Below are positions 9,001 through 63,810 of a stretch of DNA of 64,000 nt, piece by piece. A model generated the notes under the pieces. The model was given only the letters and a program-made list of their open reading frames with translations, searched no databases and had not been told where the DNA came from. The stretch's first letter is position 1. Every line of letters begins with the position of its first letter. Made by a program: the position numbers and the translations under genes. Where the stretch lies: NCBI GenBank assembly GCA_028708605.1, contig JAQVYS010000001.1, positions 10,928 through 74,927 of the forward strand, given 5' to 3'. The stretch is from Bacillota bacterium (lineage in GTDB: Bacteria; Bacillota; DTU065).

Positions 9001-9201
9001 GTTTTTGTAAACCGCTTTCAGACTCTTTGCTGAAACCTCTAAGTTCCAGGCAGTATCACTTTCTATATAAAGACTTACAGATTCATGCAACTCATTTGCA
9101 AAACTATTTGGGGCACCAGTTAAGTTTACAGCAAGCAACTTATTGTTTTCAGCAAAAGCTGGGGAAGCTAAAAGTATGAAAAGTATAAGCAGCAAAATCA
9201 T
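6022..9201 (-). CDS. Large secreted multidomain protein. The N-terminal half has Ig-like or CARDB-like beta-sandwich domains. The C-terminal half has an amphipathic beta-strand pattern consistent with an outer-membrane beta-barrel. Function unknown; possibly a usher-like or porin-like component.
   Basis: 1059 aa. Signal peptide MILLLILFILLASPAFA. Its start overlaps the stop of the upstream 243-aa gene (9198-9201). The C-terminal ~500 aa show alternating hydrophobic/polar residues and a C-terminal aromatic-rich segment. Confidence 0.55.
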   Translation of the reverse strand: MILLLILFILLASPAFAENNKLLAVNLTGAPNSFANELHESVSLYIESDTAWNLEVSAKSLKAVYKNNEIFLPPERISIRVNNGNWLELQEYSQCLYFGSGPTSLTLEYRFDPYWDDKLVAENYETEIMYMLNSGSLYTSFCNPKDVKPGDVARIIFANEKLKEADIKIYKGDEILFHKAVNDCREISVDTKYADGTNWPSGEYRYEVTGKESVVTKGSFTLVDMSKWGVLQGNIRNIAKNDQPFIEIYNDVGELISRKAGAAGESFSVQLQEGSYSICAGTQNGHKASERVNVLAGEVINRDIFLNPIDGLKVEASISAETIKEGSRGTLSLDLCNLSVGNIKDIRIEMTLPEGVVWSENGQTVRKSSFKEVLESKEEIEIDADLVVLPSVKEGTYPIKIRVSAYTKDDTPIEIEKTCILKVTQGLFSEPGILIGEASEGFYLADGSFIDPDENFFSLQLEPDSYGLLIGNQPHILNVSKYSERIKLQGGRNKKFGLLEFKANLAATGELDFGVKGFYDTDKLKLAFIYPYILPKGYSYTPYPTWATKSSILDKTPWQFSYEVGDFKIGAGTVYSASPLRETYASIALVGAELDLAPEDGLQCKLTGGFYLETKKEDEFLADGTTGPFVLTSLPKEGSVRVFVESRNSYNQVIKTYSLDFYVDKKSVKLKRPLVQEDQLGLNNYLIVSYLCETGQKSDKFFGGGHIGFKEKENGIYLYRHLEDQGLMGNLKYRNLSLKGSLGRYSQDATALLRTLTTNHKVRLFNAKETSLSYQLDYDGTWDSNLYILVSKGQNSNRGEFTFDFENRLVRAMIKQKLTMEKGDFTNFNSEYFFYSGSIKWPKNLVFSASREGFNGKKIDTFSTRMMYKILGFSGYVEGVWRNPREGKPKIAVSLAHNKVPLTVSAEWEHISPEFSLLELVYDTKSVWTKISLCNEKANLKKTLGVTVLPKNSLLFVAVNDDDIKTEYHLPLSKTAIKLAVTGNLETDVVIAAAELDVALSKWSQLGVEGIYHLGLKDNFRLQGFYRFKTDNFQLETRLSEQDTGIYLTYLIPLGKSSK

Positions 9202-33520: not shown

Positions 33521-35236
33521 TTAGTCAATGAATTCCTCTTTTAAAGCATATGTACCAACTTTTACTCTCACAAAGTCCAGAGAAGAACCTAAAGCTACCT
33601 GAATCGACTTCGGTGAGTAATGAGCTTTGTCAGGCAACATTTCGTTAATTAGCTCAGTTATTTCTCTGTAATGTGCTGGGCGGTTTAGTTTCTTTATAAC
33701 AGCTTTTGCATAATCTACTCTTCTTTTTTTGATAAGTAGTGATTTTCTTGTAAGTTCCACTGTTTGGTCGGGTAGTAAGGCTAGCTTTTTAGAATTACTA
33801 ATCGAAGACCTAATTAAATCCTCATCCTTATTATAGGTTGCTACAATCATCTTAGCTAAAACATCTAAAGAAAGTGGCCCACTCTTTATTATAATAGATT
33901 CAGCCTCATATGCGATGAGATCGACCTGCTCTTTATCTATCTTATTTAGTGCCCAAAGACCATCTGATAACTCTTTGCAACCTGAAAGACTTAGAAACAG
34001 AGGAATGACGCTTGATGGGTTAACATTAGTAGCTTTGTGTTTTTTTAGTATCTGGGATTTAATAAGACTTATATTTGCTATCCCACCTGCATCTTCAAGA
34101 GTTTTTCTAAATACAACAAATAAAGATTCTGCCGCCTTTATATTTGATGCTGCAAACAGTTTTTTACGAGCCTTCTTTTCTATCTGCCTAACTCTTTCTC
34201 TAGATATATTATAATCTTCTGCGATAGCTTCGAGTGTCTCTGGAGATAAAGCAAAAATTGCTAAACGTCTATTTAAAATGTCCTTTTGCCTGCTAGATAA
34301 AGTCTCCTGTATAAGATGGATGTATTCGTCTAGTGTTTGGAATTCTATTAGCTCCGAATTAGGACTACTATAATATCTATTCAGTTCATATTGAATGCTT
34401 TCAAGAGATTTCGCACCAATATTTGCGATGTTAAGCAAGTCAGATTCTTTTAGATTAGCAATTTCCTCTACATAGCGAAAACCACTCTTTTTTAAAGCAT
34501 TATACGCTCTGTTTGTAAAATCAAGGCTTTCAATTGGGGTCTTGTACTCGTCGATACCACCTACTTGGTACATCTCTTTACAACTAGAAATTTTCTTGCC
34601 AGTTACAAGACTGTAACGTCTTAATAAATTCTCAAGTGAACTAGAACCTATTCCTCGAAGGTTAGAGAGCTCTTCTATACTCATATGTTCTAGTTGGCTA
34701 ACATAAAAAAGCTTGTTTCTTCTCAGGGCATTAAGAGTTCTGTTGTCTAAGCCTAAGTTAGACAACACTAAATCGCCTTGATCTTTTTGAAGATAGTAAA
34801 CTTTAATAGCCTTTTGAATATGCTTATAAGTATTTTCGCCTATGCCTTTGATCTGTAGTAATGTCTTTTTATCTAAGGAAACTAGCTCTCCTAAAGTAGA
34901 AATACCTGCATTAGTCAAGCTTTGCAATGCCCTACGGTTTAATGCTAGAACTAAAAGATCGAGATTATTATCTTCTTCGACTGATGATATGTTGTCAGTT
35001 TTCTCTTTGTGAACCTCGAGATTTAGATTAGCGATCTTTCTAGTTATCTCTGTTGCAGTAACTTGTCCAAGTTTTGGGATCTCTAACAGCTCTTCAAATT
35101 TGATGCTAGATATTTTCCCATATGTGTCAAGACCAGCATCCAAAAGAGCTCTTACTGCACGGGTCGAAAAACCTAATTCAACTACTGAAGTAGTTGAGTT
35201 AGGAGTGCCAATAGGTGAAGTTTTTGCAAGAACCAT
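33521..35236 (-). CDS. Chimeric transcription-related protein. It has four tandem RNA polymerase alpha-subunit C-terminal-domain-like (alpha-CTD, HhH) repeats, a sigma-70 region 4 HTH domain, an unknown middle region and a C-terminal HARE-HTH domain (RNAP delta-subunit-like).
   Basis: 571 aa. Repeats at aa 17-70, 91-147, 156-210 and 235-288 each carry the alpha-CTD pattern (for example ELGFSTRAVRALLDAGLDTYGKIS...ELLEIPKLGQ). Residues 305-360 read LSSRQKDILNRRLA...ETLEAIAEDYNISRERVRQIEKKARKKL, which is sigma region 4. Residues 506-567 read PAHYREITELI...FVRVKVGTYALKE, a HARE-HTH signature. Confidence 0.6.
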   Translation of the reverse strand: MVLAKTSPIGTPNSTTSVVELGFSTRAVRALLDAGLDTYGKISSIKFEELLEIPKLGQVTATEITRKIANLNLEVHKEKTDNISSVEEDNNLDLLVLALNRRALQSLTNAGISTLGELVSLDKKTLLQIKGIGENTYKHIQKAIKVYYLQKDQGDLVLSNLGLDNRTLNALRRNKLFYVSQLEHMSIEELSNLRGIGSSSLENLLRRYSLVTGKKISSCKEMYQVGGIDEYKTPIESLDFTNRAYNALKKSGFRYVEEIANLKESDLLNIANIGAKSLESIQYELNRYYSSPNSELIEFQTLDEYIHLIQETLSSRQKDILNRRLAIFALSPETLEAIAEDYNISRERVRQIEKKARKKLFAASNIKAAESLFVVFRKTLEDAGGIANISLIKSQILKKHKATNVNPSSVIPLFLSLSGCKELSDGLWALNKIDKEQVDLIAYEAESIIIKSGPLSLDVLAKMIVATYNKDEDLIRSSISNSKKLALLPDQTVELTRKSLLIKKRRVDYAKAVIKKLNRPAHYREITELINEMLPDKAHYSPKSIQVALGSSLDFVRVKVGTYALKEEFID

Positions 35237-47778: not shown

Positions 47779-48732
47779 TTACATTTCGTGTATTTTTTTG
47801 AGTAGTACTTTTTTAATTGTATCAGAAACAAAACTTGCTTCAAGTGAATTTATTAACAAATTTTTTCTCGTAGTAGCTTTGTCTAAAAGATCGTTAGCAA
47901 TTTCATATTCGCCCTGTAACGTGATCTGAGAGGTTTGAGGGTCATCGTCATTAACTGTAACCTTAAGACCCATATTGACCATTTGCTTTATAGGGTGTTC
48001 TTTAATACTTGCAACAGCCCCAGTGTGTATATTACTTGTGGGGCAAACTTCAAAGACTATACCTCTTTCTTTTGCAATCTCTACTACCTCTTTGTCTTCT
48101 ATTACCCTGATGCCATGACCTATACGGCTAGCGTTTAGTTCCAGTATCGCCTCTTTGACGTTTCCTGGTTCACCAGCTTCCCCCGCATGTGCAGTGATAC
48201 CAAGGCCGGCCTCTTTTGCTATTTCAAAAGATCTCTTATGTGGCAAAGCCTTGAAGTTTGCTTCGTCTCCAGCTATGTCAAAGCCAACAACACCTAGATC
48301 CTTATATTTACTGGCAAGCTTTGCAAGCCTAATTGATACTGCAGGATCTTCATGCCTGAGGGTAGAGATGATTGCCCGAGTAACAACTCCAAAGTTCCGT
48401 TCACCTTCGTTAAAGCCCTCTAATACAGCTTCTACAGTATCTTCTAGTTGCATATCCCCTGATGTATGCAAAGTAGGTCCGAAGCGTACTTCTAAATAAA
48501 GACAGTTGTTTTGACTTGCGCTTTCAACGATCTCATAGGCAACTCTTTTAAGATTTTGGCGTCTTTGCGTTAAAGGATAGCCACAGGCAATCTTGTCAAG
48601 GAACTCCTTTAGGGAGGTACAGTTTTTGTTTACAGTAAGATCCGCTTTGATATCGTTTCCCATTAACTCGCTAAAAGTTTCAGGTCTAACGCTTCCTTCT
48701 AAATGAGTGTGCAAACTAACTGTATAATCCAT
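47779..48732 (-). CDS. add: Adenosine deaminase.
   Basis: 317 aa. SLHTHLEGS (the HxHxxG zinc motif) and HAGE....GHG family motifs. RBS AAGGAG is upstream. Confidence 0.85.
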   Translation of the reverse strand: MDYTVSLHTHLEGSVRPETFSELMGNDIKADLTVNKNCTSLKEFLDKIACGYPLTQRRQNLKRVAYEIVESASQNNCLYLEVRFGPTLHTSGDMQLEDTVEAVLEGFNEGERNFGVVTRAIISTLRHEDPAVSIRLAKLASKYKDLGVVGFDIAGDEANFKALPHKRSFEIAKEAGLGITAHAGEAGEPGNVKEAILELNASRIGHGIRVIEDKEVVEIAKERGIVFEVCPTSNIHTGAVASIKEHPIKQMVNMGLKVTVNDDDPQTSQITLQGEYEIANDLLDKATTRKNLLINSLEASFVSDTIKKVLLKKIHEM

Positions 48733-48787
48733 AGTTTTTTCTCCTTAAATAAGTGATTGACATAGCGCTTATGTCATAATAAATATC

Positions 48788-49420
48788 TTACTTTGGGGTG
48801 CCTTCCTGCAAAACTGCTTTTTCGTCTAAAACACTAATCCGAAACTCACAGTATTGATCGCCGTTTGCACAACATTTTTCTTCCACCACTTCTACCTTTT
48901 TACCGAGCTTTGCCTCAAAAGCACCTGCTGCTGTACCTGATTCGTAGACACAGATCTTTAGGCCAATGTTTGGAAGACCATAACAATCTGCGCATTCGTA
49001 GGTCCGGTAGATGGCCTCATTGTCTGTAACTTTTACAATCTCCTGCCGGCCATACTTGTGCTCTGGGGCTATACGAACATTGCTTTCAAGCAGTTCTTTT
49101 AAATTTGTGCCAGTAAGACTTGGGGCTATATATGCTGCACCAATTACCTTACCAATTTGATAACTAAGAGGTAGAAGCTCTGGAAAAAGCATAAAGGTAA
49201 AGGTTTGTCTATCTCTCATATAGAGAATCTGCATTTCGTTGCCGAATGTAGGACGGATCTGCCGGCCTTCAGCTAAAGCCTTATAGTGATCGTTTATGGC
49301 TGCAAAAAGTTCTTTTGCTTTAGAGGCTTCTTCCACAAGATCACGATACGCCCCAGAGGTCAAGCCTGCTGATGCCTTGATTAATGTGTGGAGTCTTGTG
49401 TAATCAGACATAAGTATCAC
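48788..49420 (-). CDS. V4R-domain protein (predicted small-molecule-binding), embedded in the nucleoside uptake operon.
   Basis: 210 aa. The C-terminal CVYESGTAAGAFEAKLGKK...CCANGDQYCEFRI carries the V4R conserved Cys pattern. Its start overlaps the upstream permease gene by 17 nt. Confidence 0.6.
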   Translation of the reverse strand: MILMSDYTRLHTLIKASAGLTSGAYRDLVEEASKAKELFAAINDHYKALAEGRQIRPTFGNEMQILYMRDRQTFTFMLFPELLPLSYQIGKVIGAAYIAPSLTGTNLKELLESNVRIAPEHKYGRQEIVKVTDNEAIYRTYECADCYGLPNIGLKICVYESGTAAGAFEAKLGKKVEVVEEKCCANGDQYCEFRISVLDEKAVLQEGTPK

Positions 49421-50357
49421 TCCGATCGAAATGTTTGCCTACAGCCTTAGGTGGTGACACTTTACGGACAAAACCACCTAATACTAAAATTGTCACAATA
49501 TACGGTAACATTTGTACAAACTGTGTTGGCCAGCCGTAAAGTTGCAAATTCATCTCTATAGCACTCGTAAGTCCGAACAAAAGTGACGCCAGCACAACCC
49601 CTACAGGATTCCAGTTACCTAAAATAGTGGCTGCAACTGCTATATAGCCTCTGCCACTTACCATATTTCGCGAAAACATACTCAGCTCCCCAAGCGAAAG
49701 ACATGCTCCACCTAGACCTGCAAACATCCCACCTAAAACTACTGCTAAGTACTTGTAAACAAAAACCTGTATGCCTAGACTATCTACGGCTGCAGGATTT
49801 TCGCCAATTGCTCTTAGCCTTAGACCCCATTTTGTTCTGTAAAAAACAAACCAACTAATAATCATAATTGCAATCATCATATAGAAGAAGGGAGATTGTC
49901 TAAAGAAAATTTCACCGATTACAGGTATATCACTAAGACCTGGTATATAAACAGGGTATATTCCAGCTACGTCAGGAGACTTACCTCTGTTTCCCCAAAT
50001 GGCAACAAGCAAAACTGCAGTAATGCCTTGTCCCAGAAGGTTTAAAGCTACACCTGAAACCACATGATTAGCTTTAAACTTGAGGGTAAAGATAGCTAGA
50101 ATTAGAGCCATTACTCCGCCTGCAATAAGCGAGAAAACTACTCCCGTCCAGGGGTTACCGGTAAGAAATGACCCTAAAACGCCAAAGAAGGCTCCAACTA
50201 ACATCAGTCCTTCTAAACCTAAATTAACAACTCCAGCCCTTTCACTATAAACTGCTCCAAAGGCAGCAAGCCCGAGAGGAGTCGCCATTCGTAACATACT
50301 TGATATAAGCCCGATGATTATATATGCCGCGTCACTTGTCAGCCACTGTTCTAGCAT
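49404..50357 (-). CDS. Nucleoside ABC transporter permease (NupC / BMP-system permease 2).
   Basis: 317 aa. Polytopic, with the ABC-2/branched-chain-type permease pattern. Its start overlaps the upstream permease gene. Confidence 0.8.
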   Translation of the reverse strand: MLEQWLTSDAAYIIIGLISSMLRMATPLGLAAFGAVYSERAGVVNLGLEGLMLVGAFFGVLGSFLTGNPWTGVVFSLIAGGVMALILAIFTLKFKANHVVSGVALNLLGQGITAVLLVAIWGNRGKSPDVAGIYPVYIPGLSDIPVIGEIFFRQSPFFYMMIAIMIISWFVFYRTKWGLRLRAIGENPAAVDSLGIQVFVYKYLAVVLGGMFAGLGGACLSLGELSMFSRNMVSGRGYIAVAATILGNWNPVGVVLASLLFGLTSAIEMNLQLYGWPTQFVQMLPYIVTILVLGGFVRKVSPPKAVGKHFDRSDTYV

Positions 50358-51381
50358 GCTTTACCCCTCCCTTCTTCCAATTTATTTTTAAGGTTTTAAG
50401 TAACTCAGGAGCTGAAACAAACAGAATAATTGCTGCTTGGATGATAATTACAAAGTCAACAGGTACGTTTGTTGTTCGATCTAAGATCATGCCACCTGCT
50501 CTCATTAAGCCAAATAAAAGTGCTGAAAACAAAACACCAAGCGGGCTATTGCCTCCTAAAATAGCTACAGCAACTCCGTCAAAACCATACCCTGGAGAAA
50601 ATCCGTCAATATAACGACCATGTAATCCTAAAATCTGACCTGCTCCGCCAAGACCAGCTAAAGCCCCTGAAAGTAAGAGTGTTAAGCCAATCATCTGAGG
50701 AACATTAATACCAGCAGCAGCAGCTGCTCTAGGATTAGATCCTACTACTTTAAGATCGTATCCAAGTTTGGTGTGGTAAAGTAAAAACCAAACCACCAAA
50801 ACAAAAAATAACCCTACAAATAGCGCACTTGAAAACTGTGCCCCTTGGCCTAGTCTAGAAAGTGCTGCACTCGAATGAATCGTTGGTGTTTGAGGCACAG
50901 GGCCAGGTGCTTTAAAGGTGTAGTTTGCAAGATAAGCACAGAGTAAAGTACCGATACTATTTAGCATAATTGTAATGATAACTTCGTTGGCATCAGCTTT
51001 AATCTTTAGCCACGCTGCAATTAAAGCCCAAAGACCACCAAAGAGTGCGCCACCACAAAGAGCAATAATCACATGTAGAAGATGGGGAAGTGGTGGCAAG
51101 TAAGCGGCCAAAACAGCCGCTGCCATTGCTCCTAAATAGAGCTGGCCTTCAGCGCCAATATTAAAGACCCCACAATTATTAGCAAGCGCTACAGCAAGAC
51201 CTGTAAAGATTAGGGGCGTCGCTTGCACTAAAGTCTGTGCAATCCCATCCCAGCTACTTACAGCTCCCCATATCATTGCCTTATATGCTGCAAGAGGTGA
51301 GTATCCACTAAAATACAAGACAAGACCTGCTGCAAATAAGGCTAAGACTAACCTACAAGCTAGATTAAGAACCCTCCTCAT
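50332..51381 (-). CDS. Nucleoside ABC transporter permease (NupB / BMP-system permease 1).
   Basis: 349 aa polytopic permease. Its start overlaps the ATPase stop. Confidence 0.8.
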   Translation of the reverse strand: MRRVLNLACRLVLALFAAGLVLYFSGYSPLAAYKAMIWGAVSSWDGIAQTLVQATPLIFTGLAVALANNCGVFNIGAEGQLYLGAMAAAVLAAYLPPLPHLLHVIIALCGGALFGGLWALIAAWLKIKADANEVIITIMLNSIGTLLCAYLANYTFKAPGPVPQTPTIHSSAALSRLGQGAQFSSALFVGLFFVLVVWFLLYHTKLGYDLKVVGSNPRAAAAAGINVPQMIGLTLLLSGALAGLGGAGQILGLHGRYIDGFSPGYGFDGVAVAILGGNSPLGVLFSALLFGLMRAGGMILDRTTNVPVDFVIIIQAAIILFVSAPELLKTLKINWKKGGVKHARTVADK

Positions 51382-52892
51382 AGTCCAACCACCTTGCTTT
51401 CATCCTTGTTAAAGGCGCCTGCCATATACATACCCAGCTCTTTTTCTGTGGTGGAAAGAGCTTGCGTTTCATAGACTAGAGAGCCTTCGTAAAGGACAAC
51501 TATCCGGTCACTAAGTTGCCTAATCTCGTCTAAATCAGCAGAGACCAATAAGATAGCCTTGCCTCTCTTTGCCATGTTCAAAATCTCTTTATGAAGATAC
51601 TCAATCGCTCCAACATCAACACCACGAGTCGGATGGGCGATAACTAATACATCCGAATCATGGTAAAATACTCTTCCAAGCAGAAGCTTTTGAGCATTTC
51701 CGCCAGACAGAGATGCTGTTTTTGCTGCAATTCCTTCGGTCTTTACTTGATAAGTATCAAGGATCTCTTTGCTGACTGCATTGATTTTTTTAAAATCTAA
51801 AACACCTCTGTTTTGATAGTTGCTTTGATAGCCTAATATCGCATTTTGCCAGTTACAAAAACTTGGAACTATTCCTCTATCATTGCGATCTTCAGGAATA
51901 AAACCTATTCCTTCTCTAATCCTTTGTTTTACAGAGTGCTTAGTGATATCTTCACCTTTTAAATATATAGAGCCCATATCCGGCGTAACAAGTCCTGTTA
52001 GAGCTTCTAAAAGCTCAGTCTGACCATTACCTTCTACACCAGCAACACCTAATATCTCACCCTTTTTCAAAGTAAAGTTAATGTTTTTAAGAGCATCTTG
52101 TAGGCAGAGATCCTTAGCCTCTAATACCACCGGACCTTTAACAGTAGGCTCTTTTACAGCTTGGAGGATTACGCTTCTTCCTACCATCATCTGCGCAAGA
52201 ATCTCAGGAGTTGCTTTTTTGGTACTGATTGTACCCATATTTTTGCCATTTCGAAGCACTGTAACATTGTCTGCAATTGCTAATGTTTCTTTTAGCTTAT
52301 GGGTGATGATAATAATGGTTTTACCTTCATTTTTCAACGCCTTTAGCATTTCAAAAAGCTCTGCAACTTCAGGAGGAGTAAGAACCGCGGTTGGTTCATC
52401 TAAAATGATGGTCTCTGCCCCACGGTAGAGCGCCTTTATGATTTCAACACGCTGCTTCTCTCCGACAGGTATATCCTCTACTAACATATCTGGGCGCACC
52501 TTTAGCCCTAACTTATGACTTAACTCCATCACTTTTTCCCTAGACTTTTTATAAGAAAGAATGCCCCACTTAGTTTCTTCCTTGCCAAGAATAATGTTTT
52601 CCATAACACTGAGGTTATCAACGAGCATAAAATGTTGAAAAACCATACTTATTCCTGCATTAATAGCTTCTTTGGGAGAGTTAATCTGGCAGAGAGTACC
52701 GTTTAAGCAGATCTCACCTTCATCCTTTGGATGAATGCCATAAAGAATCTTCATTAAGGTAGTTTTACCTGCACCGTTTTCGCCCAGAAGCGAGTGGATT
52801 TCACCCTTATTTACAATCAACTCAGCATTATCTAGAGCTGTTAGTGAGCCGAATCTCTTGACAATATTACTCATTCTTAGAGCTTCAGACAT
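51378..52892 (-). CDS. Nucleoside ABC transporter ATP-binding protein with tandem duplicated ATPase domains (NupA-like).
   Basis: 504 aa. Two Walker A motifs (GENGAGKTT and GVEGNGQTE) and two ABC signatures. Confidence 0.85.
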   Translation of the reverse strand: MSEALRMSNIVKRFGSLTALDNAELIVNKGEIHSLLGENGAGKTTLMKILYGIHPKDEGEICLNGTLCQINSPKEAINAGISMVFQHFMLVDNLSVMENIILGKEETKWGILSYKKSREKVMELSHKLGLKVRPDMLVEDIPVGEKQRVEIIKALYRGAETIILDEPTAVLTPPEVAELFEMLKALKNEGKTIIIITHKLKETLAIADNVTVLRNGKNMGTISTKKATPEILAQMMVGRSVILQAVKEPTVKGPVVLEAKDLCLQDALKNINFTLKKGEILGVAGVEGNGQTELLEALTGLVTPDMGSIYLKGEDITKHSVKQRIREGIGFIPEDRNDRGIVPSFCNWQNAILGYQSNYQNRGVLDFKKINAVSKEILDTYQVKTEGIAAKTASLSGGNAQKLLLGRVFYHDSDVLVIAHPTRGVDVGAIEYLHKEILNMAKRGKAILLVSADLDEIRQLSDRIVVLYEGSLVYETQALSTTEKELGMYMAGAFNKDESKVVGL

Positions 52893-52959
52893 TTTTCCAG
52901 CCTCCTAATCCAAGAAGAATCGCTGGCAAAAAACCAGCGATTCTTTAGCCCCTAGTCTA

Positions 52960-53991
52960 TTATTTAGCGTTTTTCAAAAACGCATCTACTTCTTCAAGAG
53001 TGCTTGGAACAACAATCTCACCTGAGATGATCTTTGCACGGATCTCCTCTATCTTTAGAATGTATTCTTCTGGAATCGTGAAGCTGTTTTCGGTTGTATC
53101 ATAACCCATAGCCTCTTCCTTTAGGCCATAACAGAAGTCTCCACCTTCCCAAGTTCCATTCATTGCTGAATTAATTTGGTCTACGACTACATTTCCAAGT
53201 CTTCTTACAGCTGAAAAGAGGATATTGTTAGGCTCGATATAATTTTGGTTTGAGTCAGCACCTATTGCATATTTGTTGACTTGTCTTGCAGCTTTAAACA
53301 CTCCTAGGCCTGATCCACCTGCAGCTTGGAAAACAATGTCTACGCCTCTTTGGTACATTAAAAGAGCTTGTTCCTTTGCTTTAGCAGGGTCAGACCAGCC
53401 ACCTACATACGCAACGCTCACATCAGTTTTGGGTTCTACATATTTAGCACCAGCTGTATATCCAGCAACAAAAGTCTTAATAAGAGGGATTTCCATACCA
53501 CCGACTATACCAATTCTGTTTTGTGCGTTCATTTGTCTGAAGTTTCTTGTGTCTGTTGTAAGCTGAGCTGCGAGTGCACCAACTAAGAAAGCCTTCTCAT
53601 AATCTTTAAAAACGATGGAAGCTACATTAGGAACACTAATAGCCGCATCAATTAAAACGAATTTTTGATTTGGATATTCTCCAGCAACTTTTTTAAGGGA
53701 CTCTGCTTGGTCAAAACCAAGGCAGACAATCAAGTCATAAATGCCACTTTGAGCAAATGCTCTTTCATGGCCTTCAAACTCTGCAATAGACGATGGCTCT
53801 ACATAGTCCAACGTGATGTCAAGCTCTTCTTTAGCTCTTGTCAAACCTTCAAAAACGGAGTCATTAAAGGAACGATCTCCAAGGCCACCTGTTGCGAAAA
53901 CAACACCTACATTAAACTCTGCTGCTGCAAACACACCAACTAGACTCAGTGTTAGAATAACGAGAAATAGCTTCCTAAATGTTTTTGTCAT
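52960..53991 (-). CDS. BMP-family (basic membrane protein / PnrA-like) nucleoside-binding lipoprotein, the substrate-binding component.
   Basis: 343 aa. Signal peptide followed by a PBP type-I fold with BMP family motifs (VDIVFQAAGGSG). Confidence 0.85.
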   Translation of the reverse strand: MTKTFRKLFLVILTLSLVGVFAAAEFNVGVVFATGGLGDRSFNDSVFEGLTRAKEELDITLDYVEPSSIAEFEGHERAFAQSGIYDLIVCLGFDQAESLKKVAGEYPNQKFVLIDAAISVPNVASIVFKDYEKAFLVGALAAQLTTDTRNFRQMNAQNRIGIVGGMEIPLIKTFVAGYTAGAKYVEPKTDVSVAYVGGWSDPAKAKEQALLMYQRGVDIVFQAAGGSGLGVFKAARQVNKYAIGADSNQNYIEPNNILFSAVRRLGNVVVDQINSAMNGTWEGGDFCYGLKEEAMGYDTTENSFTIPEEYILKIEEIRAKIISGEIVVPSTLEEVDAFLKNAK

Positions 53992-54003
53992 GTTGTGTTC
54001 CTC

Positions 54004-54861
54004 CTATTTAGCCAAATTTTTTTGAACTTTAGCATCGACGTCAGTCCGGTAATCTAGACACTTACACTCATTTGGACCACAATTTGCAAGAGTGCGTAGC
54101 ATTAAACGACCAATCTTAGGTGCTGAATCCTTGTAAAGATCAAAGATCTCGTTACCATGCCAATTGGTTATCATGCCTTCTGCATAATTAGAAATAAGAT
54201 AAATACTAGCAATGTGAGCGCCAATTAATCTGGCATAGTAAACCTCTGGTGAGAGTGTGATGCCAGCAATATCTGCATGAGCGTTGTGTAGCATTTTAAC
54301 CTCTGCTGCGCTCTCAAAACGCGGACCTTGACTTGTAGCGTATACGCCACGATTAAAAACTCTAGGAAATTCCTTTTGTGCTTCTTGGTACAGCGTATCT
54401 CTTAGAGTTGGGCAGAAAGGATCTAACATTCTTACAATTTTATTTGGAATCAGTGCAACCGTTGGCTCTTTTCTCATGTCAATATAATCTGAAGGAATAA
54501 TTAAATCACCTGGATCAAGCAGGGTGTTTATTCCACCGCCACTGCCTTCTACAACAATGTTTTTCACGCCAGCTTGCATAAAAACCCAAAAGATTTGTTC
54601 TGGTCCATTTGCTGGCGCATCAGCTGAATGCCAGCCATGAAATGCTGCAGAAAGAACTAGCCTGTCTTTGTGATCTGCTGTTATCTCTTTATCTAGTTTT
54701 AAAAGCTTTAGAGGAACAGTTTCACCGTAAGGGGTTTGAAAAACTAAATTGTCTTCTAATACCTCTACACCTTTTAGGCCAATGTCCAACGGGAAATCTC
54801 CAGCCCAGGTCCCTGAACCACCAATGTACGCGTATTTAACTGCGGGAATTGTTTGAGTCAC
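54004..54861 (-). CDS. Purine nucleoside phosphorylase of the MTAP/PNP (PNP_UDP_1) family.
   Basis: Motifs YIGGSG, GPRFESAAEVKM and DIAGITLSPEVYYA align to MTAP/PNP-I. The likely start is the GTG at 54861, 8 nt after GAGGAGG (VTQTIPA...). The ORF track extension to 55038 runs across the riboswitch terminator and is rejected. Confidence 0.75.
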   Translation of the reverse strand: MTQTIPAVKYAYIGGSGTWAGDFPLDIGLKGVEVLEDNLVFQTPYGETVPLKLLKLDKEITADHKDRLVLSAAFHGWHSADAPANGPEQIFWVFMQAGVKNIVVEGSGGGINTLLDPGDLIIPSDYIDMRKEPTVALIPNKIVRMLDPFCPTLRDTLYQEAQKEFPRVFNRGVYATSQGPRFESAAEVKMLHNAHADIAGITLSPEVYYARLIGAHIASIYLISNYAEGMITNWHGNEIFDLYKDSAPKIGRLMLRTLANCGPNECKCLDYRTDVDAKVQKNLAK

Positions 54862-54875
54862 AAAAATAACCTCCT

Positions 54876-54929
54876 CAATAAAATAAAGCCCGGGTGGCCA
54901 GGTTACGGCGAAACCTGACCATCCGGGCT
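54876..54929 (-). terminator. Intrinsic terminator forming the expression platform of the purine riboswitch. Its U-tract abuts the RBS of the PNP gene.
   Basis: Minus-strand RNA AGCCCGGAUGGUCAGGUUUCGCCGUAACCUGGCCACCCGGGCU, then UUUAUUUUAUU, then GAGGAGG. Confidence 0.6.
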
Positions 54930-55037
54930 TTTCTCCCCAAGGTGTAGCATAATTAATGCCTGTACCGCTTGGACCAAACCCTAAAGAAGCCATGCATAAA
55001 CAATGGCTTTTTAAGTGGAACCCTAGGTACACTTCCA

Positions 55038-55104
55038 TCCGTAGTCAGAGAGTTTACGGCTCCCCGGTAGAAACGCCCAGTCCATATTACTAGGCATATA
55101 CGAA
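55038..55104 (-). ncRNA. Purine riboswitch aptamer, guanine/hypoxanthine class (C at the discriminator position).
   Basis: Minus-strand RNA UUCGUA-UAUG-CCUAG-UAAUAUGGA-CUGGG-CGUUUCUACC-GGGGAG-CCGUAAA-CUCUCU-GAC-UACGGA. It has the conserved L2 (AUAUGG), J2/3 (GUUUCUACC), L3 (CCGUAAA) and J3/1 (GAC) elements, and paired P1, P2 and P3 stems. Confidence 0.8.
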
Positions 55105-55143
55105 AATATTCGTTTATTAATTCAATATCAATCTGACATCTTA

Positions 55144-55401: not shown

Positions 55402-55911
55402 CTAAACCAATCTATCTAACATCATAACAACATCGGCACTTAAAAGAGTATAATCGTTAATATTAAATCTGTTTCCATCAACATCAATAACAAGAAGTCT
55501 ACCTTTTCCTAGATTAATGATATTTTGTCTTGGATCTTTAACAACAAAACTCCTTGGTCCTCTGTCAGTTTCAGCATCAAAGTACCAAAGACCAAACTCT
55601 TCAGTAAGCTTATTCACGCCATGAATATTCGGCATATAGTATCGCTTGTAGAGATAGTCCTTGAGGATTTCTTTTGAATTGAGTTCTAACTCATTTATGG
55701 ACTTTATTAACCCAAGTTCTTTGTTTTTAGAGTCCTTGACCCAAATATACCGTTCTGGCATTTTTAGAGGAAAGCAACACCCTGCATCTGCTTTAATTAC
55801 ACAGTACTTATCTTTATAGGTAAAACGAAGTATCCCTGAAGTAGAATAACTAAAGATCACATCCTGAGGGTCTAAATATTGTAGATCACCGAATTCAGGC
55901 AAGTTGCTCAT
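55402..55911 (-). CDS. Hypothetical protein, probably DUF1854-like, translationally coupled to the upstream ABC exporter.
   Basis: 169 aa. Its start overlaps the 3' end of the ABC gene by 17 nt. No enzymatic motif was recognised. Confidence 0.4.
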   Translation of the reverse strand: MSNLPEFGDLQYLDPQDVIFSYSTSGILRFTYKDKYCVIKADAGCCFPLKMPERYIWVKDSKNKELGLIKSINELELNSKEILKDYLYKRYYMPNIHGVNKLTEEFGLWYFDAETDRGPRSFVVKDPRQNIINLGKGRLLVIDVDGNRFNINDYTLLSADVVMMLDRLV

Positions 55912-58168
55912 TTACATTTGCCACCTCCCCATTTTTGCCACTGTCAATCTCTTGAGCCATCACAAGTTCGTAATAATAGCCCTTTCTCTTTATTAATTCA
56001 CTAGGGGAGCCAGCTTCAACAATTTTACCTTCTTCAATAACTATTAGCTTGTCGGCATTTCGCAAGGTACTAAGTCTATGCGCAATTGCAATTGTTGTTC
56101 TGTTAACTACAAGCCTATCAATTGCTTGTTGAATCTTTTGTTCTGTCTCTGTATCGACAGATGATGTTGCCTCATCTAGAATCAAGATCCGTGGGTCATG
56201 TAAAATCGCGCGAGCTATAGCGATTCTTTGTCTTTCTCCTCCAGAAAGCCTTGTTCCCCTTTCGCCTACAAAAGTATCGTAGCCGTTTGGAAAAGTTGTT
56301 ATATAATCGTGGGCATTAGCAATCTTTGCTGCTCTAATAATCTCTTCCATAGTCGCATCTGTTTTAGCATAGGCTATATTATCTGCAATTGTACCGTTAA
56401 AAAGGAACGTATCCTGCAAGACCATACCAACCTGTCCACGAATGTCTTGCTGTGCGATTTCTTTGATGTTGTTCCCATCTATGGTAATTTCACCTTCATT
56501 GGGATCATAGAAACGACAGACTAAGTTAATTATAGTAGACTTACCTGCACCGGAGTGTCCCACTACTCCGAGCATCTCCCCTTCTTCTATCTTAAAACTG
56601 ATATTTTGCAAAACCGGTTCATGCTCATCATAACCAAAGGTCACGTTATTAAATTCCACTTCACCTTTGATGTGAGGCATCCGAATGGGATTTGGAAGGT
56701 CAACTACATCAGGCTGAGCATCTAAAATTTCAAAGACTCGTTCTGCACTAGTTAAGGATCTAGTTAACCAATCTGTAATCCTACTTAAAAACTGCAGTGG
56801 TCCGTAAAAACGCCAGATATAATTCATGAAGGTTACTAACTGTCCAACTGTTGCAACTCCTAACAAAACGTCACGGCCACCGATTAGATATACAAACAAA
56901 CTACCAAGAGTTAGCACAAAAGAAAGCCACGGATATAACGTTGCCCAGGTCTGTTCTGCTTGTACAGAAGCTTGATATAGGTCTCTGCTTCTGTTATCAA
57001 ATCTCTCTATCTCTTTATCTTCTTGAGCGAAAGCTTTAATAACCCTCACTCCAGATAAAGAATCGTTTAAAACAGCTGTCATTTTGGAGTTACGATGCCA
57101 AAAGCTAGAAAAGAGTTTCCAGATATACTTCCAAAACTTATAAGATAGTAAAACCGCAATAGGCGCGGGAATAATCACTAAAAATGCTAGTTTTGCGTTT
57201 ATGCTAAACAATATAGCCCCTATTCCAATAAGGAGTAACACCTGAACTAAGAAATATTGCAAACCTTCAATAAGAAAGTTGTTGAGTCTGTTGACGTCAT
57301 GAACTAGCCTTGACATGATTGAACCCGTTTGCCTTTTGTCGTAATAACTCAAGGAAAGCCTTTGCAACGCTTCGTAGGATTTTTTGCGAAGCTCATAGAC
57401 TAGGCTAGCTGAAAGCCATGCAGCCATACGCCCTCTAACTACAGCGATTAAAGTCGACAAAAACTGAGCTGCAAATAAGCCAATCACAACCCAAATTAGC
57501 ATCTGCCAAGCGTTGAGTGGTCTTTCCCCAAGTACTTTGTCGATTAAAATCACACCACTTAAATAAGGTGGTACAAGATCCAAAGCCGTTCCTAAAAGCA
57601 TCATCACAGTTAGCAAAATCAGCTTACCTTTAAACGGCCAAGCATAAGCCAAAAGACGTTTTAAAATTGCCCCTTTGTCGATACAAGCTGGACAGGACTC
57701 TGACCATTCTGGGATAATTCTGCCACACTTTTGGCAATAACTCTTACTAGTATCTTCAATGTGATGGAATGCAAAGTCTGATCTCTCATTTTCATCTAGT
57801 TTTATCAGCTTATTTAAAGCCCTTGCTACATAGTTAAAGTCTCTAGAGTAAGAGTTACTGTATTGTAACAATAAGACCATGTCATTTTTAGTTGTAGCCT
57901 GCAAAACACCGCAACCAACCAAATTTTGATGAGATATATCTAGGACCTCATCCATTGATACTGAAATCCTTAAGCTATACTCCTCTGGGCCTTTTTGCTT
58001 GTAGACCTCAATAAAGTTGGTTGTAGCAATAAGCCATAGGTCACCGTATAAGCCCTTTTCGTCGATGTCTGAATATTGAGTAAGAATAACCTTGCCTTTC
58101 TCTGCTTCTAGATTTTCTTTAAAAGCTTCTGAAAGACTACGTGCCGTAAGCACCCATACTACCTCCAA
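55895..58168 (-). CDS. Fused ABC exporter (transmembrane domain plus nucleotide-binding domain, type I exporter fold) with an unusual N-terminal cytoplasmic domain of about 170 aa that ends in a CxxC...CxxC zinc ribbon.
   Basis: 757 aa. The N-domain ends YCQKCGRIIPEWSESCPACIDKG. Six TM helices follow. Walker A GHSGAGKST, signature LSGGERQR and Walker B ILILDEATS. Confidence 0.8.
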   Translation of the reverse strand: MEVVWVLTARSLSEAFKENLEAEKGKVILTQYSDIDEKGLYGDLWLIATTNFIEVYKQKGPEEYSLRISVSMDEVLDISHQNLVGCGVLQATTKNDMVLLLQYSNSYSRDFNYVARALNKLIKLDENERSDFAFHHIEDTSKSYCQKCGRIIPEWSESCPACIDKGAILKRLLAYAWPFKGKLILLTVMMLLGTALDLVPPYLSGVILIDKVLGERPLNAWQMLIWVVIGLFAAQFLSTLIAVVRGRMAAWLSASLVYELRKKSYEALQRLSLSYYDKRQTGSIMSRLVHDVNRLNNFLIEGLQYFLVQVLLLIGIGAILFSINAKLAFLVIIPAPIAVLLSYKFWKYIWKLFSSFWHRNSKMTAVLNDSLSGVRVIKAFAQEDKEIERFDNRSRDLYQASVQAEQTWATLYPWLSFVLTLGSLFVYLIGGRDVLLGVATVGQLVTFMNYIWRFYGPLQFLSRITDWLTRSLTSAERVFEILDAQPDVVDLPNPIRMPHIKGEVEFNNVTFGYDEHEPVLQNISFKIEEGEMLGVVGHSGAGKSTIINLVCRFYDPNEGEITIDGNNIKEIAQQDIRGQVGMVLQDTFLFNGTIADNIAYAKTDATMEEIIRAAKIANAHDYITTFPNGYDTFVGERGTRLSGGERQRIAIARAILHDPRILILDEATSSVDTETEQKIQQAIDRLVVNRTTIAIAHRLSTLRNADKLIVIEEGKIVEAGSPSELIKRKGYYYELVMAQEIDSGKNGEVANVNEQLA

Positions 58169-58359
58169 TTAAGATTTTGCTGCTTCTACCTAAATAAAAT
58201 GTGAGTATCAAGGCGGAGGCTCTGTGCTGTCTGTTTCCATTTTACTTCCTCCTCAGCTTTCTTATAGGTATTGAAAGTTTAGATTAATACTCCTTAAATC
58301 CTGCCAATTATCTCAAATAATTTAAAGTTCTTCCAAACAAAGGACTAATGTCACCTTTA

Positions 58360-60678
58360 TTAGTCTAAATATCCATAAGTCTGGACAAACTCTCTTATTG
58401 CCATAAAGATGGCTTCAGCATTTTTAGTAGAAAAATCACCAGATTTTTGCCAAGCCTCGATACCATAATTGCTGACAAAATCCCCTTCTGTTAAAATCGC
58501 TGGCATTGTCCATTGACGAATAACAGCAAAAGAGCGATGAGCATAAAAGCGATACTCTGATCCTTGGTGCTCATGCATATATTTAACTGAAAGCCTTGAT
58601 AGTTCTTGGCTAAAAGGCGTGTAATAATATGCTTCAGTTCCGTGAGCTGATCTATTTGATGCAGCGTTATTATGAATACTCACAAAAAGATCAGTTTGGT
58701 ATCTCTCGGCAAAGTCTACTCGATCATAAAGGCCTAGAGCATAGTTGTAGTTTTGATCTCTTGTTAGAAAAACCTTACAGCCTGCATCTTCTAAGAGCGA
58801 TTTAAGCTCCATGGCTATTTCTAGATTAAGATCCCTTTCCTTTAGCCCTGTAGGACCAACAGCACCAGAGTCAGGACCATGACCTGGATCTATGGTTACT
58901 TTCTTGTCATCTAAAAAAGGTGAAAATTCGCTTTTAAGCTTTAAACTCAAGACATTTCCGCTAAAGTCAGCATCATAACCATAGATAGTGTTCCCTTTTA
59001 GATCAATACGATATTGCAAAATATCATCAGTGACCTGCATCGGAGTGATCAATTTAACATATTCTGCATCCTTCCTCCAAGCAATGTTATAGACACCACT
59101 AGTTGTATTGTAAAAGGTCACAAGGAGAGCTGGTTCACTAACAAGCGGAGTAATGGTGTAGAAAACAGGCTCTGAAAGGGAAAAACTGACATTGGTATAA
59201 GTCTCTCCGCTTTTTGTAACTGAGACGCTATTGATCACTGCTTTAGAAGGAGCTATTCCATCTCCTAAAAAGCGTAGGTTGTCTCTATGAGTCCATGCTG
59301 AAAAGGTCTTGGCAGGAGTTATCTTATAATAGTCTCCCACTCTTCCTGTAATCTCTACCTTAGCATTACTTTTTATGGTACAAACCCTGTCATAATTTGA
59401 AGATGGACCACCATAAATTGCAGCCGGCATACCTGGTGTATATAGCTCTGCGACTAAAGGTCTTGCTAAATCATATACTGTTACGTTTGCAACTTTTCTT
59501 GTAATGGCGTTGCCAGCTCTATCTGTTAGAGAAACTTCGATTGACACAGCATCTTTGGCATCTTCTCTTTGAAAACGGTACACCCCACTGTAGTTATATG
59601 ACCTAACCTCTGTCATAGGAAATGGTCCTTTCCCATCTATGGTAAAGCTTGCCTCACATCTAGCTTCTGAGCCTGTCACAGACAAACTTAAAATGTCTCC
59701 TGGTGAATATGCTAAAATACCTGAAGGTTGAAATTCTCTAATCTGAGGAGTGATTGTATCTTTTTCAATACGAATTAGCTCTTGATACCAATTGCCTGCT
59801 AGATCGACGACGCCTAAGTAGAAAGAGTTTCGTCCTTCTTTAAGAGGCAAAGTTAACCTAAAATTGCCGTCTTTATCTGCTAAAGCTTCTAATCCAAGAT
59901 CTTCGACCTCAACAGTGGCATACGGTTTTGTTTTAGCTCTCAAGATTATAAAGTCTTCCGTTGATATATATCCTGTTGTTGGAAATTCAATTTCTAAATA
60001 GGGTTCTATGGTATCTAACGTAACTTGAATGACCTCTAAAGCCATATTTGGCAGATTTTCATCTAAAGCTGCTACATAAATAAAGTTTTCTCCCTCTAAA
60101 AGACTAACCTCTACTTCAAATGAGCCGTCATCTCGTAAAGGATACAATACTCCGTTTACAAACACACGACTCCTTGGCTTGGTATGCCCGGAGACAGTAA
60201 TTCTTTCCTGATTTACAAAAATGCCGTTTTGTGGCTGGCTAACTACTAGTTTAGGTGGGCTAGTATCTCTAATTATTGATCTTTCAAGCATTATCGACTC
60301 ATTACTAATCTTGTTTTGCGCCCTTATCTGTATCTTGTTTAAGCCCTCAACTAGTTTAACAGTCGCTTTAAATGTGCCATCTGTAAAAACCTCAGCTTCC
60401 ATTCCTTGAACCCAAACCTTACTTAATTGATCTGTTTTCCCTTCGACTTGAACTATCTCTTGATTTGTTTTGGGAATGTAGTCTGGTTTAAACTCTAACG
60501 CTGGAAAAGGGGGGTAATAAACTTCCAATTTCGGTGTTTGATTAGAAGCTAGGATTATACCTGTCAAAACTATTGTAAAAAGTAAAATCACCCATAACAG
60601 TTTAGCTTTCATATCCCATCTCCTCCTAAGTGGTAGTTCAAGAAGCAAAAAACATTCCCTTTTTATTCCAAATCGCAA
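58360..60678 (-). CDS. Cell-wall hydrolase: N-acetylmuramoyl-L-alanine amidase (Amidase_3 catalytic domain) with N-terminal tandem Ig-like domains and an SH3-like domain.
   Basis: 772 aa. A signal-anchor is followed by repeated ~90-aa beta-sandwich modules. The C-terminal part reads VTIDPGHGPDSGAVGPTGLKERDLNL...VSIHNNA, the Amidase_3 zinc motifs. Confidence 0.8.
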   Translation of the reverse strand: MRFGIKRECFLLLELPLRRRWDMKAKLLWVILLFTIVLTGIILASNQTPKLEVYYPPFPALEFKPDYIPKTNQEIVQVEGKTDQLSKVWVQGMEAEVFTDGTFKATVKLVEGLNKIQIRAQNKISNESIMLERSIIRDTSPPKLVVSQPQNGIFVNQERITVSGHTKPRSRVFVNGVLYPLRDDGSFEVEVSLLEGENFIYVAALDENLPNMALEVIQVTLDTIEPYLEIEFPTTGYISTEDFIILRAKTKPYATVEVEDLGLEALADKDGNFRLTLPLKEGRNSFYLGVVDLAGNWYQELIRIEKDTITPQIREFQPSGILAYSPGDILSLSVTGSEARCEASFTIDGKGPFPMTEVRSYNYSGVYRFQREDAKDAVSIEVSLTDRAGNAITRKVANVTVYDLARPLVAELYTPGMPAAIYGGPSSNYDRVCTIKSNAKVEITGRVGDYYKITPAKTFSAWTHRDNLRFLGDGIAPSKAVINSVSVTKSGETYTNVSFSLSEPVFYTITPLVSEPALLVTFYNTTSGVYNIAWRKDAEYVKLITPMQVTDDILQYRIDLKGNTIYGYDADFSGNVLSLKLKSEFSPFLDDKKVTIDPGHGPDSGAVGPTGLKERDLNLEIAMELKSLLEDAGCKVFLTRDQNYNYALGLYDRVDFAERYQTDLFVSIHNNAASNRSAHGTEAYYYTPFSQELSRLSVKYMHEHQGSEYRFYAHRSFAVIRQWTMPAILTEGDFVSNYGIEAWQKSGDFSTKNAEAIFMAIREFVQTYGYLD

Positions 60679-63084: not shown

Positions 63085-63810
63085 CTAATCTTTAAGCAAG
63101 TTTACTAAGTCTAAAGCCTCATTTACAATAGTTTCTGTACCTTTTATGTTAATTACATAACTACCTTCAAAACCTGCAATACCTCCTGCTGCAACTAATG
63201 TAGCATCTAGGTCAAAAAGTATTTTAAAGGCTTTTATTTCATCAATAATAATACCATTTGCAACAACAACCATACCAACATCTAAGTTTTGCGTGCTAGT
63301 TGCAGGCTCTGAGAGTAATATTGCAGATTCTCTAACAGAGGGAACTCGTTTTTCCAATCCTATAGGTACCATTAATGGTATTTTTTTAACCACCAAAGTC
63401 CCTAAAGCTTGTCCAATAGTGCCTCCGGCCTCTCCACCAACTAAAACTCCTACTAAGCCTAAATCGTCATAGGCATTAGCTCCTTTTATAAAAAGGCTAT
63501 CTTCACCCATTTTAATCAAAGCTTCTTGCCAAGAAATATCGATCGCTTCTCCCTTATTAAGTACAAGGGCTGGCAGACGTTTTATTTTATCAGATAGAGT
63601 TAAAGTATCCTTTACTATTCCAGCAGCATATGCCTCTTTAGAAACCTTTTTCCCAGTAATCTCTTCATATATAAGAGCATTTGTTGTCCCTAAAGATAAA
63701 ACAACAATGCCTTTTTCTATAGCTTTTCTAAAATGTTCACTCTTAAGTACCGCTTTTGCAATCAACCGCTTACCAATTAGAGGAGACAATACCAATTGTG
63801 CATTAATCAT
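63085..63810 (-). CDS. Conserved hypothetical protein.
   Basis: 241 aa. A glycine-rich segment GVLVGGEAGGTIGQALG is present but no family was recognised. The gene is 53 nt upstream of murA on the same strand. Confidence 0.35.
   Translation of the reverse strand: MINAQLVLSPLIGKRLIAKAVLKSEHFRKAIEKGIVVLSLGTTNALIYEEITGKKVSKEAYAAGIVKDTLTLSDKIKRLPALVLNKGEAIDISWQEALIKMGEDSLFIKGANAYDDLGLVGVLVGGEAGGTIGQALGTLVVKKIPLMVPIGLEKRVPSVRESAILLSEPATSTQNLDVGMVVVANGIIIDEIKAFKILFDLDATLVAAGGIAGFEGSYVINIKGTETIVNEALDLVNLLKD

Follow-up and report, generated by a model that had tools for sequence, protein, structure and literature searches.

A putative ABC exporter with a PH-like, zinc-ribbon head, its DUF1854 partner and a conserved leader peptide outside the cyanophycin-linked clade

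ATP-binding cassette (ABC) exporters linked to a DUF1854 protein are found in at least ten phyla, and the sole functional clue to them comes from two beta-proteobacteria, in which the DUF1854 gene, the ABC gene and the cyanophycin-synthetase-like genes cphA/cphA' show cofitness (Price et al., bioRxiv 10.1101/072470). Mutants of this cphA clade show altered motility and pleiotropic responses to stress, interpreted by the authors as effects on the cell envelope (bioRxiv 10.1101/072470). A search of the literature returned this study as the only paper that mentions DUF1854 or its Pfam family, PF08909. A genome survey of activated sludge notes two cphA genes clustered with an ABC transporter gene, cphB being absent, and the cphA-linked clade is thought to export an amino-acid polymer. 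A related pair of genes lies on the minus strand of a 64,000-nucleotide stretch of DNA from a Bacillota bacterium of the GTDB lineage DTU065 (contig JAQVYS010000001.1 of assembly GCA_028708605.1, positions 10,928 to 74,927), hereafter the window. The pair consists of an ABC half-transporter gene (55895..58153) and a DUF1854 gene (55402..55911). Judged from sequence comparison, it belongs to a family that is already annotated, but it stands apart from the cphA clade, with a leader peptide private to its own clade. The locus as a whole is probably best explained as a self-contained operon for an exporter with a PH-like and zinc-ribbon head and a DUF1854 subunit.

The large protein has the layout of an MsbA/Sav1866-fold half-transporter, with a transmembrane domain (TMD) followed by a nucleotide-binding domain (NBD) in one chain. 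All features of the pair and of its leader region lie on the minus strand. Pfam places ABC_membrane at aa 183-456 (E 1.2e-40) within a TMD of aa 177-470 (56744..57625) and ABC_tran at aa 520-669 (E 3.3e-37) within an NBD of aa 497-740 (55934..56665). The NBD motifs are canonical and all catalytic motifs are intact, Walker B and its glutamate included (Walker A GHSGAGKS at 532, Q-loop at 580, LSGGE at 636, ILILDE at 656-661 and H-loop IAHR at 690-693). Since only one ABC gene is present, the protein is most simply read as forming a homodimeric exporter in which both ATP sites are active. The half-transporter architecture of the preliminary description, which had been made from the DNA letters alone, is upheld, but its length of 757 aa is not. 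That length belongs to the longest open reading frame (ORF; 55895..58168), which opens at a TTG. A GTG at 58153, in frame and five codons 3' of the TTG, lies 8 nt after a GGAGG Shine-Dalgarno (SD) sequence (58166..58162) and is the likelier start, giving 752 aa. The 752-aa product is called on six of six public contigs that encode an identical partner protein, and the ABC gene of five related lineages likewise has a GTG start behind an SD sequence.

Ahead of its membrane domain the protein carries an additional soluble domain. Pfam has no match over aa 1-176, and no hydrophobic segment precedes aa 178, the first being aa 178-196. An exhaustive HMMER search with aa 1-176 retrieves 308 clusters (50% identity) at E <= 1e-3, 58 of them at E <= 1e-10; the match is N-terminal in every cluster, and complete proteins are 705-800 aa long. 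Exhaustive HMMER was needed, as word-indexed protein searches with the N-terminal domain alone or with a 33-sequence profile gave almost no matches. These results bear out the extra soluble domain of about 170 aa that had been proposed. An AlphaFold2 model built from a 33-sequence alignment (predicted local distance difference test, pLDDT, 91.3) agrees with the earlier impression of a beta-rich, PH-like domain. The model opens with a short helix and seven strands (aa 22-99), followed by a long helix (100-118); a linker of low confidence (126-138) then leads to four-cysteine (Cys4) knuckles and a helix (160-174) that runs into the first transmembrane helix (TM1). The predicted fold is thus that of a PH-like beta-sandwich with a C-terminal helix (aa 20-118; 57800..58096), not a C39 domain. 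The knuckles occupy aa 139-158 (57680..57739). The last helix (57632..57676) is amphipathic, sits at the elbow-helix position and bears, by model and conservation, the invariant residues R166 and P173.

All 114 aligned homologues retain the ribbon cysteines C140, C143, C154 and C157. D29, G34, W40, G80, P155, R166 and P173 are conserved at 85% or more in the same alignment. The two CxxC pairs of the preliminary description therefore stand, but their spacing is CxxC-x10-CxxC, not x14. Among N-domain ABC ORFs from the loci sampled below, 78 of 84 have the Cys4 motif, 74 of them with the x10 spacing. Zinc-ribbon profiles in PDB and Pfam match the region weakly, and the four cysteines are predicted to bind zinc. 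The domain presumably lies on the cytoplasmic side, given the N-in topology of the exporter fold and the Cys4 site. With its PH-like domain, CxxC-x10-CxxC motif and R166/P173 helix before TM1, the window protein belongs to a superfamily of PH/zinc-ribbon-headed ABC proteins defined in this analysis from about 300 clusters; no description of such a head was found in the literature. A PH-like domain without the Cys4 motif occurs in L065, L069, L073, L081 and the second copy of L021, a group that includes fused Hydrogenedentota proteins. In one related lineage (L090, 6001..8297), the ABC gene is split within the linker region into calls of 138 aa and 627 aa that overlap by 4 nt, apparently through a frameshift or an assembly error. 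The 138-aa call (P0001) was considered as a stand-alone N-domain protein and rejected, being the first part of this split gene.

The partner is a 169-aa protein whose ATG at 55911 lies 12 nt after a GGAGG (55928..55924) and whose start overlaps the ABC stop codon (TGA, 55897..55895) by 17 nt, as the overlap noted earlier had implied. The identical 17-nt overlap is found in five related lineages and is kept while the flanking genes change. The label "DUF1854-like" proved too cautious: the protein is a full member of Pfam DUF1854 (PF08909, 102.2 bits against a cut-off of 26.8, E 2.4e-29, model positions 9-129 of 130). Its AlphaFold2 model (pLDDT 87.2) consists of two beta lobes with a helix capping each. 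DUF1854 has no match in the PDB by single-sequence, profile or Foldseek search, and so no close solved structure.

Linkage of the two genes extends far beyond the window. The 80 loci with the highest scores were taken from at least 592 pattern hits in species-representative genomes, obtained with a profile of the N-domain and TMD; the pattern was built from a six-sequence alignment of both, the N-domain alignment alone being too divergent. ORFs of these loci were searched with hidden Markov models made in this analysis, and 74 of the 80 loci have an N-domain ABC gene. Hosts include Armatimonadota, Planctomycetota, Latescibacterota, Poribacteria, Chloroflexota, Verrucomicrobiota, Hydrogenedentota, Gemmatimonadota, Bacteroidota, beta- and gamma-proteobacteria and Paenibacillus curdlanolyticus. 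DUF1854 is adjacent (47) or fused (15) in 62 of the 74 loci, across at least ten phyla, although such proportions are indicative only because this selection of top-scoring hits is a biased sample. A single ABC gene with DUF1854 directly 3' is the commonest arrangement (37/74). In ten loci one DUF1854 gene comes after a tandem pair of N-domain ABC genes. DUF1854 is fused to the ABC C-terminus in 15 (911-1077 aa), gene calls are broken or displaced in three, the contig ends at the ABC gene in three, and DUF1854 is missing within 10 kb in six. Four further representative proteins of 930-1021 aa are likewise ABC-DUF1854 fusions. Natural C-terminal fusions and tight coupling both point to DUF1854 as a transporter subunit at the cytoplasmic NBD end, and the earlier view of the two genes as one module is sustained.

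Variant loci add detail to this picture. The tandem arrangement occurs in L019, L028, L037, L039, L040, L045, L054, L060 and L063 (and L024), with hosts among Latescibacterota, Gemmatimonadaceae and a Pseudomonadales metagenome-assembled genome. Their gene content suggests heterodimeric transporters with one partner, a stoichiometry unlike that of the fused, homodimer-type versions. The DUF1854 gene of L043 lies 8 kb downstream. N-domain ABC loci that lack DUF1854 belong to Armatimonadota and Poribacteria.

Upstream of the pair, the window encodes a ten-codon leader ORF, METDSTEPPP (58208..58254), with an SD sequence GAGGAGG (58254..58248), an ATG at 58240 and a TGA at 58210..58208. A leader of this form, Mx6-EPPP-stop with ten codons and an SD sequence, is a conserved feature of the window clade and is found in five of its lineages (window; L007, L090, L091, L093, L095). 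The peptides are METDSTEPPP, MDIGDKEPPP, METDTDEPPP, MVKNSNEPPP and MDIGGNEPPP: length is constant, codons 2-7 vary and Glu-Pro-Pro-Pro-stop is invariant. The proline codons vary synonymously (CCG/CCA; CCT/CCA/CCG), as does the stop (TGA/TAA). None of 84 homologous ABC genes of other clades has an EPPP-stop leader, and the background of PPP-stop in other-clade loci is 0.014 per kb per strand. Polyproline stretches are known to stall ribosomes, an arrest that elongation factor P (EF-P) relieves (PMC11611912, PMC5021804), and the leader might regulate the operon by polyproline arrest. Between the stop of the upstream amidase gene and the leader, a consensus scan finds a sigma-70-like promoter candidate, TTGGAA-18-GATAAT with an extended TG (58307..58336; 9/12 matches), whose position would fit a separate transcript of leader, ABC and DUF1854 genes.

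The leader is followed by a conserved element, GGURGARGC (58182..58190), complementary to the leader's proline-codon stretch GCCUCCRCC, which itself contains an anti-SD-like CCUCC. RNAalifold predicts an 8-bp pairing between the element and the proline codons, with one-sided changes only. An attenuator structure is not claimed here, because compensatory changes are lacking and the minimum free energy of the single sequence has a z of 0.24 against shuffles. Neither a terminator nor an antiterminator was demonstrated at the leader by consensus scan, RNAalifold or folding against shuffles.

Taken together, these features outline a possible mechanism. A promoter, the ten-codon leader ORF, the ABC gene and the DUF1854 gene, in that order, would form one operon. 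Its product would be a homodimeric, ATP-driven exporter of the MsbA/Sav1866 fold with a PH-like domain before TM1 on each half, joined by a flexible linker to a Cys4 ribbon seated on the helix that enters the membrane. DUF1854, translationally coupled to the ABC gene, would be a cytoplasmic subunit docked at the NBD end, as it is in the fusions. The head and DUF1854 together may form a cytoplasmic platform for cargo recognition or gating. The cargo would be made in the cytoplasm without a signal, would most plausibly be a peptide-like oligomer or polymer, and would be delivered to the TMD cavity; the zinc ribbon, lying directly on the membrane-entry helix, could relay binding to TM1. In the window clade, ribosomes that stall on the EPPP-stop leader might tune expression. 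While the operon and its two-part product are the probable core of this account, the full version, a cphA-independent branch that is switched by EPPP-stop ribosome arrest and exports peptide-like cargo through the PH-domain/DUF1854 platform, is a tentative and rather unlikely proposal. If true, it would describe a pump wired to the state of translation, whether EF-P activity, prolyl-tRNA supply or inhibitors of the peptidyl-transferase centre.

Several observations weigh against this account. The partner model was built from ten sequences only and has a predicted template modelling score of 0.61. The leader region, as a single sequence, folds no better than its shuffles. The Cys4 motif is lost in a few lineages, so the zinc ribbon is dispensable in places. 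Six loci with intact flanks (L014, L021, L022, L026, L031, L053) have an N-domain ABC gene and no DUF1854 within 10 kb, so DUF1854 is not universally required, and the preliminary description of the partner as obligate does not hold. No cargo gene is identifiable, and no specific family is a recurrent neighbour of the pair in clades other than the cphA clade: clustering of the neighbours in loci without cphA yields generic families only (GFO/IDH/MocA, Opp-type ATPase, AcrB). The bias of the locus sample belongs on the same side of the scale.

The leader also lends itself to a different interpretation, in which the window encodes an efflux pump that exports small molecules or peptides and is inducible by stress or antibiotics. 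Stalling on the leader would induce the pump, and the head and DUF1854 would be regulatory rather than cargo-binding. A conserved, SD-driven EPPP-stop ORF just 5' of the ABC gene is what such a pump might have, polyproline being a known cause of stalling (PMC11611912, PMC5021804), and the best generic matches are exporters of the MsbA, SmdA and Tet(46) types. Yet only one clade has the leader. The head and DUF1854, by contrast, persist across phyla, an argument that their role is conserved and specific. Neither regulators nor resistance genes are encoded nearby, and the attenuator structure is unsupported, leaving an inducible efflux pump a possible but unlikely alternative to the cargo-recognition platform.

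The cyanophycin-associated transporters offer the closest relatives by annotation. The best NCBIfam matches of the pair are NF052233 (cyanophycin metabolism-associated ABC transporter) and NF052234 (cyanophycin metabolism-associated DUF1854 family protein), both equivalog models. The ABC protein aligns colinearly with NF052233, N-domain included (aa 11-741 on model positions 23-750 of 766), and scores 628.1 bits against a cut-off of 880; the partner scores 63.8 bits against the NF052234 cut-off of 150. As a control, the Azonexus pair, beside two cphA genes, scores 1397.6 and 233.9 bits, respectively. The Paenibacillus pair falls below both cut-offs, as the window pair does. The preliminary description had reckoned with a well-characterised, annotated family: the pair is annotated (PF08909; NF052233/NF052234) but not biochemically characterised.

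Proximity to cphA separates the window from these relatives. With a cphA from L072 as query, a homologue is found within 10 kb in 13 of the 80 loci. Average-linkage clustering of the TMD and NBD core places twelve of these in one separate cluster; the thirteenth, L078, in which no N-domain is detectable, was left out of the clustering. That cluster of cphA-linked transporters has 15 members, 12 with cphA in range and three on truncated contigs, and none of the 65 proteins of the remaining clusters has cphA within 10 kb. Hosts of the cphA-linked clade are beta-proteobacteria and some Planctomycetota and Bacteroidota. The core of the window protein falls with sequences of Armatimonadota, Victivallales and uncultured origin, sharing about 50% identity with them against 42-45% with the cphA clade. 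No cphA homologue occurs in the 64-kb window, in L001-L009 or in the flanks of L090-L097. The cyanophycin link thus holds for one clade only, with the window pair in a different, cphA-independent clade. Charge and isoelectric point of the N-domain and of DUF1854 do not distinguish the cphA-linked clade, DUF1854 being acidic in both.

An exporter of cyanophycin or of a cyanophycin-like polymer, with cphA elsewhere in the genome, is accordingly improbable. In its favour are the colinear NCBIfam matches and an architecture identical to that of the cphA-linked clade: the pairs of Cupriavidus basilensis (RR42_RS04420 and its neighbour) and Azonexus hydrophilus (L072) have the same PH-like and Cys4 head, TMD, NBD and downstream DUF1854. 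Against it, both scores lie under curated cut-offs, neither the window nor the flanking regions of five related lineages contain a cphA, and the cphA-linked transporters cluster apart. The cyanophycin-associated pair also lacks the EPPP-stop leader ORF of the window clade.

The surroundings of the pair are an Amidase_3 protein on one side and a PNP/Bmp purine-salvage operon on the other. A purine riboswitch (RF00167, 84 bits; 55022..55123, minus strand) with its own promoter-like site heads this operon, which spans about 47779..54993 and encodes PNP_UDP_1, Bmp-type nucleoside ABC uptake, V4R and adenosine deaminase proteins. A 344-aa ORF (54004..55038) overlaps the riboswitch, so its true start lies further downstream; it is called as 329 aa on public contigs. 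As the purine operon is separate and riboswitch-led, the ABC-DUF1854 pair is an independent unit. Directly upstream of the pair lies the gene of a cell-wall amidase (58360..60678, minus strand) with Glucodextran_B repeats, SH3_3 and Amidase_3. The amidase occupies this place in the window and three related lineages (loci L002, L090, L091 and L093). In L007-L009 a 6-kb xanthine-dehydrogenase cluster lies between amidase and pair, and in L095 other genes replace the amidase. The downstream flank changes within the clade as well, to a GH31 gene or an acetyltransferase. Given the insertion in L007-L009, linkage of amidase and pair is probably only syntenic.

This synteny is one of the few points in favour of an MsbA-type flippase for an envelope lipid or lipid-linked precursor, whose cytoplasmic domains would couple it to envelope synthesis. 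The others are a score of 465 bits to the MsbA model TIGR02203 and the cell-envelope reading of the cphA-clade mutants (bioRxiv 10.1101/072470). The TIGR02203 score lies below the cut-off of 602, such similarity being common to all exporters of the fold, and the amidase linkage is not kept. A flippase therefore has little probability.

A module for export of, or immunity to, a bacteriocin, lantibiotic or signalling peptide is very improbable. The nearest parallel is enterocin DD14, a leaderless bacteriocin made in the cytoplasm, for which the bPH-domain proteins DdE/DdF work with the ABC transporter DdGHIJ in export (PMC8657885). PH-like domains and an ABC transporter are common to both systems, but DdE and DdF are separate proteins encoded in a bacteriocin cluster (PMC8657885), whereas the PH-like domain of the window is fused to the ABC protein, with no bacteriocin genes. 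Genes for bacteriocins, lantibiotics or signalling peptides are absent near the pair, and its flanks in the window and in relatives contain no precursor-peptide, modification or immunity genes; the neighbours, which the preliminary description had wished to see compared with such genes, are the amidase and the purine-salvage operon. Bacteriocin ABC models score below cut-off. Pfam finds no Peptidase_C39, and the model TIGR01193 of the PCAT class reaches 311 bits against 524, over aa 212-731 only. PADLOC reports no defence system, the ABC protein having only generic ATPase-region matches and the partner no match. The idea that a wrong start codon created the N-terminal domain, which the preliminary description had tied to an internal, ribosome-binding-site-led start before TM1, is refuted: the longest ORF does open at a TTG five codons before the real start, but the domain has a confident fold and invariant residues in about 300 clusters (50% identity), independent gene callers include it, and no in-frame ATG with an SD sequence lies between aa 92 and TM1.

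Elsewhere in the window, a 571-aa ORF (33521..35236, minus strand) has an unusual combination of three repeats of the RNA-polymerase alpha C-terminal domain, helix-hairpin-helix motifs and a sigma-70 region 4. Two ORFs, of 1059 aa (6022..9201, minus strand) and 241 aa (63085..63810, minus strand), have no Pfam match at E <= 1e-5.

The constant of the family is the PH-like and Cys4 zinc-ribbon head together with DUF1854, not cyanophycin. The question shifts accordingly from cyanophycin export to what the cytoplasmic domains recognise, and the cyanophycin name of the NCBIfam models should not be transferred to sub-threshold matches such as the window pair. Paenibacillus curdlanolyticus YK9 (L064) is a cultivable carrier that has no linked cphA, and the natural fusions, L055 with 950 aa among them, are suited to structural work. 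Should the leader prove functional, the known regulatory leader peptides would gain a compact sensor based on polyproline.

Three further systems offer comparisons with parts of the proposed exporter. The Bacillus subtilis ABC exporter BmrCD is controlled by a leader peptide, BmrB. The window shares with it a short, SD-driven ORF just 5' of an ABC exporter gene, ending in a stalling motif, but differs in its unrelated leader peptide sequence and in that no terminator or antiterminator has been demonstrated; the comparison serves as a lead rather than a finding. In the O-antigen transporter Wzm/Wzt, a C-terminal carbohydrate-binding domain on the NBD recognises the polymer end of a lipid-linked glycan cargo. 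That beta-rich recognition domain at the NBD C-terminus corresponds in position to DUF1854 in the 15 fusions, although Wzm and Wzt are separate TMD and NBD proteins of another fold and show no sequence or detected structural relation to DUF1854. HlyB-type ABC transporters carry an N-terminal cytoplasmic C39-like domain that binds substrate. Membership of type 1 secretion is not indicated, as the window pair adjoins no HlyD-family protein and scores 404 bits against the TIGR01846 cut-off of 726. The extra domain of the HlyB type is papain-like C39, where that of the window is PH-like with a zinc ribbon, and the window has no adjoining HlyD/TolC partner. Both are nevertheless half-transporters that share a fold and carry an additional cytoplasmic domain N-terminal to TM1, and HlyB may by analogy be regarded as the best precedent for an N-terminal domain that recruits cargo.

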